From a virus, in IMG/VR virus record IMGVR_UViG_3300035698_010625, positions 1-64,000 of that record: a stretch of 64,000 bases of DNA; one strand, written 5' to 3'. Under the pieces are notes generated by a model. The model had not been told where the DNA came from and made no database searches. It saw nothing but the letters and a program-made list of their open reading frames with translations. The position numbers and the translations under genes are program-made. Below, one piece after another: positions 51,224-62,347 of the stretch; within the stretch, counting starts at the first letter, position 1, and every line of letters starts with the position of its first letter.

Positions 51224-51300
51224 GGGTGCTTCGTATAACGGCACATTATGTCGGACTCTTAATCCGAACGATCTGGGTTCGAATCCCAGGGTACCCACCA
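51224..51300 (+). tRNA. tRNA-Lys(CUU)
   Basis: Cloverleaf, CCA. Confidence 0.9.
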
Positions 51301-52372: not shown

Positions 52373-52460
52373 AATCAATGAGAGTTTAGTTCAAGTTAGA
52401 ACATCTGGCGCAATAGTCAGAAGATGCTGGTATCGAATCCAGTCCCTTTCACCGAATAAT

Positions 52461-52546
52461 GGATGTGATGTACCGGTGGTGGTATAGCGGGCTGTAACCC
52501 CGTGGCTCTTATGGGCGAGTAGGTTCGACTCCTTCCACATCCACCA
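52461..52546 (+). tRNA. tRNA-Tyr(GUA)
   Basis: Long variable arm, CCA. Confidence 0.85.
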
Positions 52547-52634
52547 ATTTCGTTGGCAGTAAGGTCACGCATTGAGATTGACCTCCTAGTAATAGGTACC
52601 TGATGGGTAAATTAAAAAGTGCGATTTCAAATTC

Positions 52635-52712
52635 CGGTGATTAGCTCAGCCTGGTTAGAGCTCTCCGTTTGGGGCGGAGTTGCCAGAGGTTCGAATCCTC
52701 TATCACCGACCA
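52635..52712 (+). tRNA. tRNA-Pro(UGG)
   Basis: Cloverleaf, CCA. Confidence 0.92.
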
Positions 52713-52885
52713 ATAACTAATTATCTAATGTGCTTGCCGGCATATGCGGATGATTGCACGAACTTCTATTGATAACAAGCGGTAACTTGTAATCATAAGA
52801 TGAGTTAATTAGTAGTTTAACGGTAGATCGCCTGGCTGGAAGATGCGGGTTCGAATCCTGTCTAATTACTTTCGTGATTTACAAC

Positions 52886-52960
52886 AGTTCCTTAACTCAG
52901 AGGCAGAGTATCGCTTTTACACAGCGAAGGTCGAGATTTCGAAATTCTCAGGAACTACCA
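52886..52960 (+). tRNA. tRNA-Val(UAC)
   Basis: Cloverleaf, CCA. Confidence 0.88.
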
Positions 52961-53148
52961 GTAACTAATCAACAGCTCGATGGGAGTCTTGCTATTTGAT
53001 TGCACAGCGTCTTACTCCCATAAGATTTATTGATAGTGTAATGGATGCACACTGGGGTTTAAACCTGGAAGTACGGTTCGATTCCGTGATTAATAACTTG
53101 GGCTGTGATTTACAAATCGCTTGAGCAACTGCTCGCGTACAATACAAT

Positions 53149-53236
53149 GGGAGTGTGGTGGAATTGGTATACACATTGGTCTTAGAAACCAACGACTGTA
53201 ATGGTCACGCAGGTTCGACTCCTGTCACTCCTACCA
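53149..53236 (+). tRNA. tRNA-Leu(UAG)
   Basis: Long variable arm, CCA. Confidence 0.92.
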
Positions 53237-53319
53237 ATCAATGTTCGATTAGCATAATGCAATGCGGCAAGTACTTGTAGAAGAAAGCTCGAATCTTTCA
53301 TCGAACTCCAAATTTAAAC

Positions 53320-53393
53320 GCTCAATTAGTTCAATGGTAGAACAACGGCCCGGTAAGTCGTTAACGTAAGTTCGATTCTTACATTGAGCACCA
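53320..53393 (+). tRNA. tRNA-Thr(GGU)
   Basis: Cloverleaf, CCA; C at position 33 (atypical). Confidence 0.85.
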
Positions 53394-53561
53394 ATTAATG
53401 CCCGGTTCGTCTAAATATTAGGACCTCTGCCATATTTGAGCAGAAAATAAAAGTGAGATTCTTTTACCGGACACCAAACAATGCCAAGGTCGTCTAATAA
53501 TCTAAGACCCTCTCGTGATAGAGAGAAATGAGGTGTAAATCCCCCCGAGGCACCAAACAAT

Positions 53562-53637
53562 GCTGGAGTCGTCTAACGGCTAGGACTTTACATTCTCAGT
53601 GTAAACAATGCGAGTTCGAATCTCGTCTCCAGTACCA
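53562..53637 (+). tRNA. tRNA-Glu(CUC)
   Basis: Cloverleaf, CCA. Confidence 0.88.
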
Positions 53638-53642
53638 AATCT

Positions 53643-53729
53643 GGATTGATCCGCTGGGTAGGCCGGCAGCACGGTTTGAACCCGTGGGTGACCGAAAGGT
53701 TAGGGGTTCGACTCCTCATCTCTCCGCCA
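53643..53729 (+). tRNA. tRNA-Ser(UGA)
   Basis: Long variable arm, GCCA; acceptor mismatches. Confidence 0.8.
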
Positions 53730-53965
53730 ATTTTATCCTTCGCTCGTCTAATGTTAAGACACCAAACCGTGGAGGTTTGGGGATAGAGGTTTGATTCCTT
53801 TGCTTAGGACCAATTTTAATGACTACTTCCTATACGTAGGTTAATAACTGAAAAGTTAAGAGTGGTCACCAAGTTATCCCACACTCATCGAATGGTACGG
53901 TAAACGTTAAGAAACGTTTCGTGGGGAGTTTATCAGAAAGCCGTGACAGATAGACAACTAACAAT

Positions 53966-54039
53966 AGCTGCATAGCATAGTGGTAATGCGGGGGTCTTTG
54001 AAACCTCTCAGTAAGGTTCGATTCCTTATGCGGCTGCCA
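53966..54039 (+). tRNA. tRNA-Gln(UUG)
   Basis: Cloverleaf, GCCA. Confidence 0.88.
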
Positions 54040-54125
54040 ATTTTGATGTGGATATAATCTATCCCTTGTGCGGGTGCCCCTAGTAATAGGTCAAGGCAGC
54101 AAACTGCTCACATCAGATTTAATAT

Positions 54126-54212
54126 GGAAGATTAACTAGACAGGGTTCTAGAGCTGTTTGCTAAACAGATGGTACCGCAAGGTATGAGTTTCGAATACTC
54201 AATTTTCCGCCA
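54126..54212 (+). tRNA. tRNA-Ser(GCU)
   Basis: Long variable arm, GCCA. Confidence 0.87.
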
Positions 54213-54241
54213 AACATAAAGAAAAATTAAGTATTAACAAT

Positions 54242-54316
54242 GGGACTCAGGTGTAACTGGGTGCACGGCGGACTTTTAATCCGTAAGGACAGGGTTCAAG
54301 CCCTGGGGTCCCACCA
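54242..54316 (+). tRNA. tRNA-Lys(UUU)
   Basis: Cloverleaf, CCA. Confidence 0.88.
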
Positions 54317-54403
54317 AATGTAAATGGAAATGCTTCGGCATTGTAAAACTCACCGAAAGGTTTCCACCCAAGTGTGGATATAAAGAAGTTCCGATTAGTC
54401 AAT

Positions 54404-54477
54404 GCGTCTAAGTACAAGGTGTATCCTCGGGTTTCCAACCCGTAGTGAGTGGGTTTCGATTACCCCTAGTCGCTCCA
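54404..54477 (+). tRNA. tRNA-Gly(UCC)
   Basis: GCG start, U73, CCA; atypical D arm. Confidence 0.75.
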
Positions 54478-54482
54478 ACAAT

Positions 54483-54595: not shown

Positions 54596-54850
54596 ATGCA
54601 AACTTTTAAAAGTTTCACCGAAGGAAATGTCGTTAAATTTCCTAAGAAGAAAAAACAAACCCACGATGAAATTACTGGATTGCCAATTGATTCACGTCTT
54701 CCAGATACCCCAGACGAATGGATGGTTGTATCAAAGGATGAGAGTGTAGCATATAGCACTTCACCAACTCGTCAAGAAGCACAGAAAAAACTTAAGACGT
54801 ATATGATGAAGACAGGTAAGAGAGATCTTAAAGTCATCAAATTTGGCTAA
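54596..54850 (+). CDS. small late protein with capsid-targeting-like N-terminus (internal protein candidate)
   Basis: MQTFKSFTEG; own late promoter. Confidence 0.6.
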   Translation: MQTFKSFTEGNVVKFPKKKKQTHDEITGLPIDSRLPDTPDEWMVVSKDESVAYSTSPTRQEAQKKLKTYMMKTGKRDLKVIKFG

Positions 54851-54859
54851 GATAATCCT

Positions 54860-54888
54860 CGCCAAGAAGGTCTAAACCATATATAATG
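54860..54888 (+). promoter_or_regulatory. phage early/middle promoter GCCAAGAAGGTCNAAACCATATATAAT
   Basis: Near-identical copy at 61427-61453; TATAAT -10. Confidence 0.7.
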
Positions 54889-54898
54889 ATATAACAAA

Positions 54899-57729: not shown

Positions 57730-57868
57730 GTTGTAACTGCAAGGATAATGCAGGGTGGTTGGAGAGCTTGTGAGGGTGTACAACCTTTTATCCACAGGTA
57801 TAAAGTTAGCTTTAACAAATCGAGGCGCTTTATAAATCTCTAGTGAAGTTCGATTCTTCATTACAACA
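57730..57868 (+). ncRNA. tRNA-like RNA with ~85-nt insert replacing the anticodon region
   Basis: GTTGTAA/TTACAAC acceptor, CTGCA/TGCAG D-like arm, TGAAG-TTCGATT-CTTCA T arm. Confidence 0.55.
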
Positions 57869-57876
57869 CTTTCAAT

Positions 57877-58877: not shown

Positions 58878-59702
58878 ATGATTACGCGAAACAAATTGGC
58901 TGTTGCTATTCTTGCTGCAGTTTCCATTACTACCGCAGCACACGCATCTGAAGTTACTACAATCACCGCTGGCTCCAAGGGCGGTGCATACGCTACTTAT
59001 GGCAACAATCTTGCAACTATGCTCACCCAGAATGATTGGAAGAGTAAGGTTATTCGCAGTAAGGGTTCAATTCAGAATATTGCCCGTCTTGTAGATGGCT
59101 CAGCACAAATTGGTTTCACCCAGGGCGATGCTTTGCAGCTCTCAAAGGCTGGTGGTAAGATTGATATTCTTGGAGCACTTGGAATGGAATGTGCTTTCAT
59201 TGTTTACAGTAAGAAGGGTAAGGTCACTGACGAAGATCATCTTCAGAATGAGGGTGTGAAAATTGCTGTTGGTAAGAAAGGTACTGGTTCACAAGCAACG
59301 TGGTCTTACATGGTTCAGCTAGAACCTGCATACGGTAATGCATCTGCACAGTATACTGGCGGAGCTCGCGCACTTGGCGCACTCAAAGCAGGCACTGTTG
59401 ACGCTGTTCTCTTTGTCACCGATCCCACTAATCTGAGTCATAAGCTTATTCAAGCAGTAAATGGTGATCCAGACCTCGATTTTCTAGACGTTGATGACAG
59501 TGACTTGAATGATGATCTACCTAATGGCACGCCTGTCTATGAATTCAAAGAAGTTGACACTGAAACGGGTGCTTTCGCGGATGACGTAGATACTATCTGT
59601 ACGCCTTTGCTAGTAATTGCTAGTGCAGATGCTGACGAAGACATGCTTGATGATGCTGCAGGAATTATGCTAAGCAATCGCAATGCGGTGCTTGGTAAGT
59701 AA
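58878..59702 (+). CDS. TAXI-family TRAP transporter solute-binding protein
   Basis: Signal peptide (AHA), GSKGGAY, SKGSIQNI, AQIGFTQGD, VGKKGTGS. Confidence 0.8.
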   Translation: MITRNKLAVAILAAVSITTAAHASEVTTITAGSKGGAYATYGNNLATMLTQNDWKSKVIRSKGSIQNIARLVDGSAQIGFTQGDALQLSKAGGKIDILGALGMECAFIVYSKKGKVTDEDHLQNEGVKIAVGKKGTGSQATWSYMVQLEPAYGNASAQYTGGARALGALKAGTVDAVLFVTDPTNLSHKLIQAVNGDPDLDFLDVDDSDLNDDLPNGTPVYEFKEVDTETGAFADDVDTICTPLLVIASADADEDMLDDAAGIMLSNRNAVLGK

Positions 59703-59725: not shown

Positions 59726-59923
59726 AAGTTAGTACTTAATCGCTCTACGGAGAGGAAAGTCGGGACAAGCGGCATGATCGTGTGGGAGGAGTTAACTCCG
59801 CTTTACCACCGTGACATAGCTTGCAACACAAACAGGATTAGACAAATTGTGCATCAATGATATCCGGGTTGTGGCCAATAGACGAATGATAGCATAGAAC
59901 AGGATCCCGCTTACGGATTACTT
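59726..59923 (+). ncRNA. minimal RNase P RNA (rnpB-like)
   Basis: GAGGAAAGTCGGGA (CR-I) pairs with AACAGGATCCCGCTTA (CR-V) as P4 with bulged U; AGACGAATGAT (CR-IV); P5, P15 and L15 GGU can be drawn. Confidence 0.8.
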
Positions 59924-60212
59924 ACTACTTACAAGGAGCAAATGATGAGCAAGGTATACCCTCACTCAAGCACTAAGCAACGCGAACGATACGTGAAACA
60001 AAACGCTATTAAAGGCGAACGCTCTATCGGGCAAACTGATGCTTCAGTAGGCTGGTATGGACTTACAGTAAATTGGAAAGCTATTGTGCGTGGTGCACCG
60101 TGTTACATTACAACTAACTAAAAGGAGCAAGATATGCGCTTGATGAATTTAGAGCACCTCCTTAAATTGTGATTTTTGGTAAAACACTAATTCACACTTA
60201 AGGAAACATCTA

Positions 60213-60597: not shown

Positions 60598-60624
60598 GAC
60601 GGAGCGCTTCGGCGCTCTCGTTTT
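60598..60624 (+). terminator. UUCG hairpin terminator
   Basis: GAGCGC-TTCG-GCGCTC followed by TCGTTTT. Confidence 0.6.
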
Positions 60625-60838
60625 GGCTGACACGGTGACTACCTGGCTTTCAATCCAAAGGAGTTTAGGGTTCGATTCCCTTATCAGCCACCAAATTTTA
60701 GGAGAGGCATTATGAGTATATTTGCTTGGATTGTTTTTCCATTTTTATTCCCCGTGGTTGTCGCAATGTTTTGGGTGCTGACACATGTGGATCCATACAC
60801 TGGTAAGGTTCATTGGAATCTTACGTGGTAAACGATAT

Positions 60839-61128
60839 CATGTAGTAGTTTAAATGTTGGCATTATGAGGAAAGGTGAAGATTATTTGAAAGTAAAATTA
60901 AGTTAGTAGCAATTCTGTAGTGGTGATGTAACGAGACGTGTAGGTAAAAACGTGAGCCAAATGAAAGATTGGACAGGCATCATCATCGAGGGCGTTGCGA
61001 ATTCTTCTTTTGAACCCTTTAATTAGTAACCTTTACTTACGTGTCACACGGAAAAACGCTAGGAACCCCCCCGCTTACGCGTCTCTTAATCCTGGATATC
61101 CACGGTTCAATACCGGGCTACATGGCCA
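60839..61128 (+). ncRNA. ~290-nt tRNA-scaffolded RNA
   Basis: CATGTAG/CTACATG-GCCA acceptor, T arm, D stem GTTT/AAAC around ~195-nt insert, enlarged anticodon loop. Confidence 0.6.
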
Positions 61129-61152: not shown

Positions 61153-61398
61153 ATGAATGATTATTTTAATGCGTTTATTATGATTTTGGTTATAGCGATA
61201 GTAACAAATGTTGGTTGGATTATTAATTATGATGATCTTAAAACACTTCATGAAAAGGCGTTAAGTATTCATAAGATTGAAGTCATGCAACATAGACAAG
61301 CTATTTGTCGTAGTGCAACAGCTGAACACGCAACTAATACTGCTACACTCTTCGAAGCAATCAATAAGCTCAATTCTGCTGCTAAGGCTGCAGAATAA
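61153..61398 (+). CDS. small membrane-anchored protein
   Basis: N-terminal TM; RBS GGAG. Confidence 0.5.
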   Translation: MNDYFNAFIMILVIAIVTNVGWIINYDDLKTLHEKALSIHKIEVMQHRQAICRSATAEHATNTATLFEAINKLNSAAKAAE

Positions 61399-61459
61399 TT
61401 TACTTTAATGGCATAAGATATACCTTGCCAAGAAGGTCGAAACCATATATAATGGTACT

Positions 61460-62347
61460 ATAATCTGAACACAAACTAATAGATTGGGTCGCGTGGGATC
61501 CATAAGATAAGTAGCAGTAATGTTACGAAAGGCTATCTCATTTACGGATAGCGCCACTTTTATGAAGGTGGACATCTACGCAAGCCAAGCTCTTTACGGG
61601 TACCTCCGGGTGCTCTGGAAGATAAGTTGTGACCGACAAACACATCCAGGCCAACGGTGAGGATGATAGATTCCGCAAGAATCTCGGGTCAAGCAAAAGC
61701 AACGAACTTCAATGAGCAAAGGGTAGATTGAAAAGTTAAGCTTGCAGGTAAGGCTTTCAATCAATACGATAGGTGAAAGAAGATACAGCCTTCTGGAATC
61801 TAGAAATATTGCTAAGTAGCTCGCAAGGCGAAAGGTACGAGGTGGGTGGTATTTGGTAACTCAAAGGTTATTGAGCCACAGGCATTCGCTCATCTTAAAA
61901 TGTAAATATGTAAACGGAATAGGGGAATAGGTACACCCGCCCGGCCGCCAAAGCCAGGATCTGTTGGTTCGAATCCAACTTTCGTTATCAACTTTGTATT
62001 GATAACAAATCTTAAATGCAAAGACGAATGCCACCGTGAAGTGGAAATTGCTTAATCCTCAAACCCATAGGGTAATTGAGGTTCAGGATGCTCGCAAGGC
62101 GGATTGAATTAGTTGGAGTCACAGGTAAATTCTTAGCGGAGTTACACAGCCCAGCAAGGCTGACCGGTCGATGAATGCTGAAAAGCTCGCGGATAGAGGA
62201 ATCGCTACCTCTTTAAACAAAGCAGCAATGGTTGATTACTATGCCGCTCTTCGGAGGGTAAAGTGGAAAAGAGAAGAACCTAGCGGATCGCACCGTGTGG
62301 ATAATTTCTCGAAGGATCAACTGCATATGAGTATATTCTCAACTCAT
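61460..62347 (+). ncRNA. large structured ncRNA, GOLLD-like, with embedded tRNA-like element (61913-61990)
   Basis: Own promoter (-10 at 61448-53); ~890 nt without credible ORF; many GCAA/GNRA hairpins; GGCATTCG/CGAATGCC helix flanking the insert; terminal TGAG-TATATTCTCAA-CTCA hairpin. Confidence 0.65.

Follow-up and report, generated by a model that had tools for sequence, protein, structure and literature searches.

A candidate non-decoding RNA built on a complete tRNA frame in the RNA island of an environmental T4-type phage

We analyzed a 290-nucleotide (nt) gene at positions 60839-61128 on the + strand of a 64,000-nt stretch of viral DNA (the window), which is the first 64 kb of the 105.6-kb IMG/VR virus record IMGVR_UViG_3300035698_010625. 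The completeness of this record is estimated at ~59%, and its source is an environmental T4-type myovirus. With a probability of roughly 0.5, we propose that the gene is a candidate tRNA-processed, non-decoding RNA that is derived from a transfer RNA (tRNA), and in which the tip of a long rod pairs to an enlarged anticodon loop, like the small RNA rnaC of phage T4. We favor this reading because the tRNA frame is exact, the ends are of the local type, the gene fills the gap between its neighbors, and excision of its two inserts restores a tRNA call. It is also favored because the inserts are complementary, the rod with its tip paired to the loop is the lowest state that we could compose, and the layout resembles that of rnaC. 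Finally, the surrounding RNA island also holds non-canonical tRNA-like genes, a miniature RNase P RNA and a GOLLD RNA.

The tRNA frame is exact, far beyond chance. The 5' strand of the acceptor stem (CAUGUAG, 60839-60845) forms seven of seven Watson-Crick pairs with 61118-61124 at a pair probability of 0.997. It is followed at 60846-60851 by U8, A9 and the 5' strand of the D stem (GUUU, 60848-60851), with the spacing and bases of tRNA positions 8-13, and this strand pairs at four of four positions with 61054-61057. The 5' part of the D loop, AAAUGUUGGCA (60852-60862), holds A14, the GG pair and A21, as read from the letters. The 3' strand of the D stem (AAAC, 61054-61057) and G26 (61058) lead into an anticodon-type arm (61059-61095), in which a 6-bp stem, CUAGGA (61059-61064) with UCCUGG (61090-61095), encloses a 25-nt loop at a stem pair probability of 0.78. 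Positions 61096-61117 comprise a 5-nt variable loop (AUAUC) and the T arm CACGG-UUCAAUA-CCGGG, with a canonical T loop (U54, U55, C56, A57 and A58; G53-C61). The gene ends at 61118-61128 with the acceptor 3' strand (CUACAUG, 61118-61124), a discriminator G and an encoded CCA (GCCA, 61125-61128).

All four stems are paired (7/7, 4/4, 6/6 and 4/5) despite the two expanded loops, and the universal tertiary bases are all retained (U8, A14, GG, A21, G26, U54-U55-C56, A58 and G53-C61). By our own estimate, the chance of finding a perfect 7-mer partner and then, two bases later, a 4-nt D-stem complement within ~230 nt is ~5e-5 to 3e-4; relaxed 7-mer partners alone are expected by chance at ~0.3 per tRNA within 700 nt. 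An earlier reading of the letters (the sequence-only reading) had listed the perfect acceptor stem with GCCA, the T arm, the 6-bp stem with its 25-nt loop and the GUUU/AAAC D stem, and we found each of them in the place given. The ends are also like those of neighboring tRNAs. The base at -1 is U, as in most tRNAs of the array, and the trailer AUUU that follows the CCA is identical to that of the Asp, Ser and Gln tRNAs. The gene lies inside a 321-nt gap free of open reading frames (ORFs), 7 nt from the stop of a 39-amino-acid ORF upstream (60712-60831, +, with the Shine-Dalgarno sequence AGGAG) and, on the other side, 24 nt from its CCA to the start of an 81-amino-acid ORF (61153-61398, +).

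Two inserts set the gene apart from a normal cloverleaf. The larger, in the D loop, is 191 nt long (60863-61053) and is predicted by minimum free energy (MFE) and constrained folds to form a long irregular rod. The smaller, ACCCCCCCGCUUACGCGU, adds 18 nt to the anticodon loop (61065-61082) and contains a run of seven C residues and most of a segment, C (61073-61085), that is described below. What remains of the loop is the 7-nt CUCUUAA (61083-61089), which is of the Lys CUU type and matches the loop of the phage's own tRNA-Lys(CUU) at 51224-51300. The match covers 10 nt, CUCUUAAUCC (61083-61092), that is, the loop and the first three stem bases. With both inserts deleted in silico, ARAGORN called an 81-nt tRNA-Lys(CUU) and took AAAUGUUGGCA as its D loop; it made no call when either insert was left in place. 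The restored call and the CUCUUAAUCC match indicate that the gene was derived from a tRNA frame. For decoding, the gene is redundant: all 20 amino acids are already served by the array, which includes tRNA-Lys(CUU) and tRNA-Lys(UUU).

The longest helices that this RNA can form join the rod tip to two other segments. We scanned for all uninterrupted helices in the RNA, allowing G.U pairs. Segment A at the rod tip (GAGACGUGUAGGUAAA, 60933-60948; mean probability of being unpaired, 0.61) is complementary both to segment B (UUUACUUACGUGUC, 61032-61045), which is the 3' strand of the rod base and pairs in the MFE fold with 60866-60876, and to segment C in the anticodon loop. The A:B helix (60935-60948 with 61032-61045) has 14 pairs, three of them G.U, and is the longest uninterrupted helix of the RNA; the A:C helix (60933-60945 with 61073-61085) has 13 pairs, also with three G.U, and is the second longest. 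The third longest, which is the longest local helix, is the 10-bp distal helix (60920-60986) of GUGGUGAUGU (60920-60929) and GCAUCAUCAU (60977-60986), which closes the tip junction at a pair probability of 0.79. The two mutually exclusive pairings had been noticed from the letters, and both exist, slightly longer than described.

The complementarity is a real signal, though a modest one that was spotted post hoc. Among 400 dinucleotide shuffles, 0.75% contained a segment able to pair with two partners, each over at least 12 pairs. The A:C duplex has an energy of -21.7 kcal/mol, which was matched by 3.6% of shuffled loops and by 1% of genomic 25-mers, and its run length was reached by none of 2000 shuffled loops (0/2000). 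B and C are near-copies of each other (CUUACGYGUC), and they extend the pairing to A in different flanks (UUA for B and UCUC for C). A plain copy would not produce both of these separate extensions.

Folding of the whole RNA recovered the tRNA frame and placed segment A at the tip of a rod. In the unconstrained MFE structure (-68.9 kcal/mol), the acceptor, D, anticodon-type and T helices were all present, and the insert formed one long irregular rod with segment A in the tip junction. The A:B helix had an ensemble probability of ~0. With the frame forced, the A:B state was at -54.2 kcal/mol vs -62.1 kcal/mol for the rod, and when the D and T loops were left unpaired as well the values were -52.0 and -59.3 kcal/mol. 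Pairing of A with B therefore costs 7-8 kcal/mol in like-for-like constrained folds, and it lies 14.7 kcal/mol above the unconstrained MFE and ~20 kcal/mol above the rod combined with A:C. In summary, the A:B state ranges from -52 to -54 kcal/mol and the rod alone from -59 to -69 kcal/mol. The lowest state that we composed was the rod plus A:C at ~-72 to -81 kcal/mol, a figure that adds a separate duplex energy to a constrained fold and carries no penalty for pseudoknot formation or steric strain. The model therefore favors a rod whose tip docks on the anticodon loop over a balanced switch.

Several known identities were considered for the gene and rejected. It has many canonical tRNA features (7-bp acceptor, D stem, UUCRANY T loop, U8, A14, G18G19 and G53-C61), but the intact gene was recognized as a tRNA neither by RF00005 nor by ARAGORN and became recognizable only after both deletions; in place of the canonical anticodon arm of 5 bp and 7 nt it has 6 bp and 25 nt. 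A search of 60839-61128 against Rfam with permissive filters matched no family at the gathering score or at E<=10; this search covered transfer-messenger RNA (tmRNA), group I introns, 6S RNA, Y RNA, RNase P and ribozymes. A tmRNA is rejected by the pair at 3:70, which is U-A and hence not G3:U70, by the lack of a tmRNA or tag frame in ARAGORN and by the lack of a match to any tmRNA model. Nor did we find a match to the group I intron model (RF00028), and the large insert sits in the D loop. A Y RNA (YrlA) is rejected for want of an Rfam match and of a TROVE (Ro60) domain in the record, and 6S-like and ribozyme identities for want of an Rfam match. RF02032 matched only the GOLLD RNA at 61839-62345. 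Kinship with RNase P RNA through the shared GAGGAAAG and CCCGCUUACG was dismissed as well: there was no RNase P match, the strands that might form P4 do not complement each other, and the sharing of 10-mers is at chance level in 13.5 kb. The insert is neither a repeat nor a mobile element, having no second copy elsewhere in the genome and no recognizable element within it.

Searches for homologues returned no relative. With blastn against 50,697 GenBank phages there was no match, either for 801 nt at E 1e-5 or for the 290 nt at E 10. Megablast with 9 kb around the site and exact 19- to 25-mers in IMG/VR, JGI metagenomes and GTDB genomes were empty or at chance level only. A degenerate loop-anchored pattern had two matches in metagenomes, both of them to an unrelated terminator beside a tRNA on gut contigs. 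A covariance model built from the single sequence found no relative in 84 loci (920 kb), in 22 T4-like IMG/VR records or in five cultured relatives (DLP_6, Melnitz, Mosig, phiM12 and S-CREM1).

The phage itself has few close relatives. It carries genes for terminase, sheath, portal and a gp23-like capsid protein, with genes for gp43 polymerase, UvsX and PhoH downstream in the record. Its gp23 has at most 58% identity to that of any GenBank phage, and a protein search for relatives gave a best match of 67% identity, on ~20-kb contigs only. For gp43, the nearest DNA polymerase in a set of 5.8 billion proteins shares 52% identity. Judged by these comparisons, the phage lineage is isolated. Because it is so isolated, the absence of homologues says little.

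A number of observations weigh against the proposal that the gene makes a tRNA-processed, non-decoding RNA. As no homologue was found in the searches made, no helix is backed by covariation. The whole RNA had a z score of -0.09 and the insert alone of -0.18 relative to shuffles, which is no extra stability, and therefore the interior of the rod rests on prediction from a single sequence. T4 rnaC has a z score of -4.6, compared with -0.09 for the 290-nt gene, and the covariance model of the gene had no match on the T4 tRNA region. One A.G mismatch interrupts the T stem (4/5 paired). The rod is ~50 bp long, so docking inside one molecule requires it to fold back. Finally, B and C have two wobble positions in common against A, which could hint at duplication rather than selection.

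The last point leads to the most serious competing explanation, which we consider possible but somewhat unlikely: that this is a dead or dying gene of the tRNA-Lys(CUU) type, formerly an ordinary tRNA of the array and recently disrupted by a 191-nt insertion in its D loop and an 18-nt templated duplication in its anticodon loop, and that its complementarities are by-products and its RNA functionless. Virtual excision restores the tRNA call, the copy would be dispensable because the array has both tRNA-Lys species and a full 20-amino-acid set, and there are many aberrant tRNA-like genes in the island. The insert has no thermodynamic signature, and the occurrence of ACGTGT twice and CTTACG twice in 290 nt, together with the near-copies B and C and their identical wobble positions against A, fits local duplication. 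What such decay does not readily explain is that four stems remain paired and every universal tertiary base was kept through two insertion events, or that B and C extend the pairing to A in different flanks, unlike a simple copy. In addition, the insert is neither a genome repeat nor a recognizable mobile element, and 290 nt of junk would rarely be retained in a lytic phage, here in an element that fills the gap between ORFs exactly. It seems far less probable still that there is not one RNA here at all, and that only the 3' ~90 nt (61040-61128) are a degenerate tRNA-like element, the 5' acceptor match being a coincidence and the intervening ~200 nt a spacer or the gene for a micro-peptide. 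CGUGUCA at 61040-61046 can pair at 5/7 positions with the acceptor 3' strand, relaxed 7-mer partners arise by chance at the rate given above, and the insert contains a 21-codon ORF (60961-61026) with a weak GAG Shine-Dalgarno sequence. However, the long-range partner is 7/7 Watson-Crick, and U8, A9, a 4/4 D stem and AAAUGUUGGCA come after it exactly in tRNA register, whereas in the short version the acceptor pairs at only 5/7 positions and a D arm is missing, and the micro-ORF is without support.

Two further explanations had been put forward by the sequence-only reading, and neither was borne out. A two-state switch, in which A would alternate between B and C and so change processing, stability or exposure of the anticodon-like loop, is in our view improbable. 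The two pairings do exclude each other, the RNA can form no helices longer than these two, a segment with two such partners is rare in shuffles, and each partner has its own flank-specific extension. Even so, the A:B state is essentially unpopulated and energetically costly in the folds described above, there is no evident pocket for a ligand, site for a protein or expression platform downstream, and covariation is lacking. The other suggestion, a new type of intervening sequence, would here mean a pre-tRNA from which one or both inserts are removed to give a working tRNA-Lys(CUU), and this is very improbable. Clean virtual excision does give a tRNA-Lys(CUU) with the CUCUUAA loop intact, and pairing between the inserts would draw the two junctions together. 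Against this, there was no match to group I or any other intron or ribozyme family, and the insert boundaries do not conform to the U ... G rule with a guide sequence inside the insert close to its 5' end. The tRNA introns of bacteria and phages are, to our knowledge, of group I and lie in the anticodon loop and not the D loop, unlike the large insert here. Neither a tRNA splicing endonuclease nor RtcB nor an Rnl2-type ligase (PF01974, PF01139 and PF09414) was found in the 105.6-kb record, which is ~59% complete and in which the T4 Rnl1-type ligase (PF09511) was not searched for. Splicing would leave a tRNA with an anticodon stem of 6 bp, which is non-canonical, and with G73, a combination atypical for tRNA-Lys; LysRS identity rules favor A73. 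Of the sequence-only reading as a whole, the tRNA frame, the two pairings, the exclusion of tmRNA and the lack of an Rfam family stand, whereas the switch and the intervening sequence do not.

If the gene does make a tRNA-processed, non-decoding RNA, its maturation might run as follows. It would be co-transcribed with the flanking small ORFs and cut between 60838 and 60839 by RNase P, either the host enzyme or one with the miniature RNase P RNA of the phage, and its 3' end would be trimmed to the encoded GCCA. The acceptor/T-arm minihelix, possibly with an intact D-loop/T-loop elbow, would serve as a handle for processing and stability. The 191-nt insert is predicted, from one sequence, to project from the D loop as a long irregular rod, and the same single-sequence prediction would have its tip (A) form 13 bp with the enlarged anticodon loop (C). 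This pairing could occur within one molecule by fold-back or head to tail between molecules, and either mode of docking would bury the Lys-type anticodon remnant and leave the RNA unfit for translation. We speculate that such an RNA could mimic a tRNA or act as a scaffold, for instance by decoying a host factor directed at tRNAs, together with the non-canonical tRNA-like genes and GOLLD. A more elaborate version, which we regard as rather unlikely, is a self-docking or self-assembling tRNA-scaffold RNA, existing as closed monomers or as oligomers joined head to tail, with tRNA elbows displayed on them. In design, such an RNA would be a functional and larger relative of T4 species 1, and it would act with an elbow-independent miniature RNase P, decoy-like tRNAs and GOLLD as one module for host takeover or anti-defense.

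The gene lies within an RNA island that spans 50.9-63.3 kb and has every element on the + strand. The island contains 29 tRNAs called by ARAGORN and several more seen by Rfam only, or roughly 30 tRNA genes, and a total of ~10 aberrant tRNA-like genes. The non-canonical tRNA-like genes include a second oversized one, of 142 nt and without an encoded CCA, at 57730-57871 (+). Its acceptor is perfect (GUUGUAA/UUACAAC), a D-like hairpin and a T arm are present, and ~75 nt of additional hairpins stand where the anticodon and variable region would be. Several tRNA-shaped genes at 52379-54482 and 60624-60693 (+) have intact acceptor and T arms and aberrant anticodon arms; examples are at 53243, 53400, 53483, 53736 and 54404, and the gene at 60624-60693 begins immediately 3' of a terminator-like hairpin (60601-60618). 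At 53028-53097 (+) there is a tRNA with the anticodon UUA, of the ochre-suppressor type, which was called by ARAGORN, scored weakly in Rfam (30 bits) and ends without CCA. There are only two runs of six or more C or G residues in the 105.6-kb record, at 53541-53546 and 61066-61072, where about a dozen would be expected from base composition. Both are in loops of tRNA-like RNAs.

Two other structured RNAs flank the 290-nt gene within 1 kb. The miniature RNase P RNA (~200 nt; 59728-59929, +) is 0.9 kb upstream and matches RF00010, the bacterial class A model, from end to end with 38.3 bits and an E value of 1.1e-10, a score far under the RF00010 gathering score of 100. It retains CR-I and CR-V, and its specificity domain is mostly gone. 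The GOLLD RNA (RF02032, 151.6 bits; 61839-62345, +) is 0.7 kb downstream and has a tRNA-Trp-like element at 61913-61987 within its variable linker. It is preceded by a near-consensus promoter, TTGCCA-17-TATAAT (61425-61453), and a 44-nt block of this promoter recurs at 54848-54891, upstream of a tRNA-Gly. The 81-amino-acid ORF downstream of the 290-nt gene had no homologue among 5.8 billion proteins, and an identical ORF is present on two short ENA contigs. The island also contains, at 58878-59702 (+), a gene for a TAXI/NMT1-like solute-binding protein (PF16868, phrog_6856). Its nearest phage relatives, in Erwinia and Klebsiella jumbo phages, have ~40% identity, and all matches were below 41%.

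If the RNA is made and is stable, T4-type phages would be shown to use a complete tRNA chassis for large RNAs that do not decode. The RNA would also be a second and far more elaborate example of the class of T4 RNAs C and D, which have gone without an assigned role for 50 years. If the insert masks the anticodon loop by design, this would suggest tRNA mimicry rather than translation, with the RNA serving as a decoy, a sponge or an assembly unit. With a miniature RNase P RNA, ~10 aberrant tRNA-like genes and GOLLD nearby, the phage would be a compact test bed for RNA biology. If the gene is only a broken tRNA gene, it would be a record of the decay of a tRNA array and of minor interest.

Among known systems, the closest in layout to the 290-nt gene is found in T4. 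The end of the T4 tRNA cluster encodes two small stable RNAs of unknown role, C and D, also called species 1 and 2 (PMC3014915). They are expressed late in infection and are visible on Northern blots (PMC9697503). We found that rnaC (139 nt; L164:1409-1547, - strand) folds, with high significance (z -4.6), as a four-way junction. Its terminal helix is acceptor-like, a rod of ~65 nt takes the position of the D arm and a hairpin that of the anticodon arm, and its T arm is canonical (CCGGG-UUCGAAU-CCCGG). T4 rnaD gave no comparable fold signal (z -0.8). Both rnaC and the 290-nt gene lie in the tRNA cluster of a T4-type phage (T4-like by gp23 in the present case) and on the tRNA strand, and both have a T arm beside the terminal helix, a long rod in the D position and a further hairpin in the anticodon position. 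Both would also be non-decoding, by our proposal in the case of the 290-nt gene. They differ in that the 290-nt gene is twice as long. Its 7-bp acceptor is perfect, and it keeps a D stem, the D-loop bases and an encoded CCA, whereas the terminal helix of rnaC is imperfect and its end is UA; moreover, the 25-nt anticodon loop of the 290-nt gene is complementary to its rod tip. Without sequence similarity or a covariance-model match to rnaC, the likeness is architectural only, and by this analysis it is a similarity of design and not family membership.

The other comparisons place the gene between ordinary tRNAs and the large RNAs of phage tRNA regions. With tRNA-Lys(CUU) it shares the four stems, the tertiary bases, a 5-nt variable loop, the T loop, an encoded CCA and the 10 nt CUCUUAAUCC, and it differs from it in the 191-nt and 18-nt inserts, the 6-bp anticodon stem, C1-G72 and G73. 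Like tmRNA (SsrA), it is an RNA of ~300 nt whose ends would form a tRNA-like acceptor/T-arm domain enclosing a large insert, but it has U-A at 3:70 and not G.U, lacks a tag frame and keeps its D and anticodon stems. GOLLD and ROOL are also large non-coding RNAs within phage tRNA regions, and they are reported to assemble by intermolecular loop-loop pairing (PMC12286853). We propose A:C pairing in trans as a similar loop-loop interaction, although any oligomerization is conjecture. Neither GOLLD nor ROOL has sequence or model similarity to the 290-nt gene, and the arrangement is reversed: in GOLLD the tRNA lies inside the big RNA, whereas in the 290-nt gene the tRNA frame encloses the insert.

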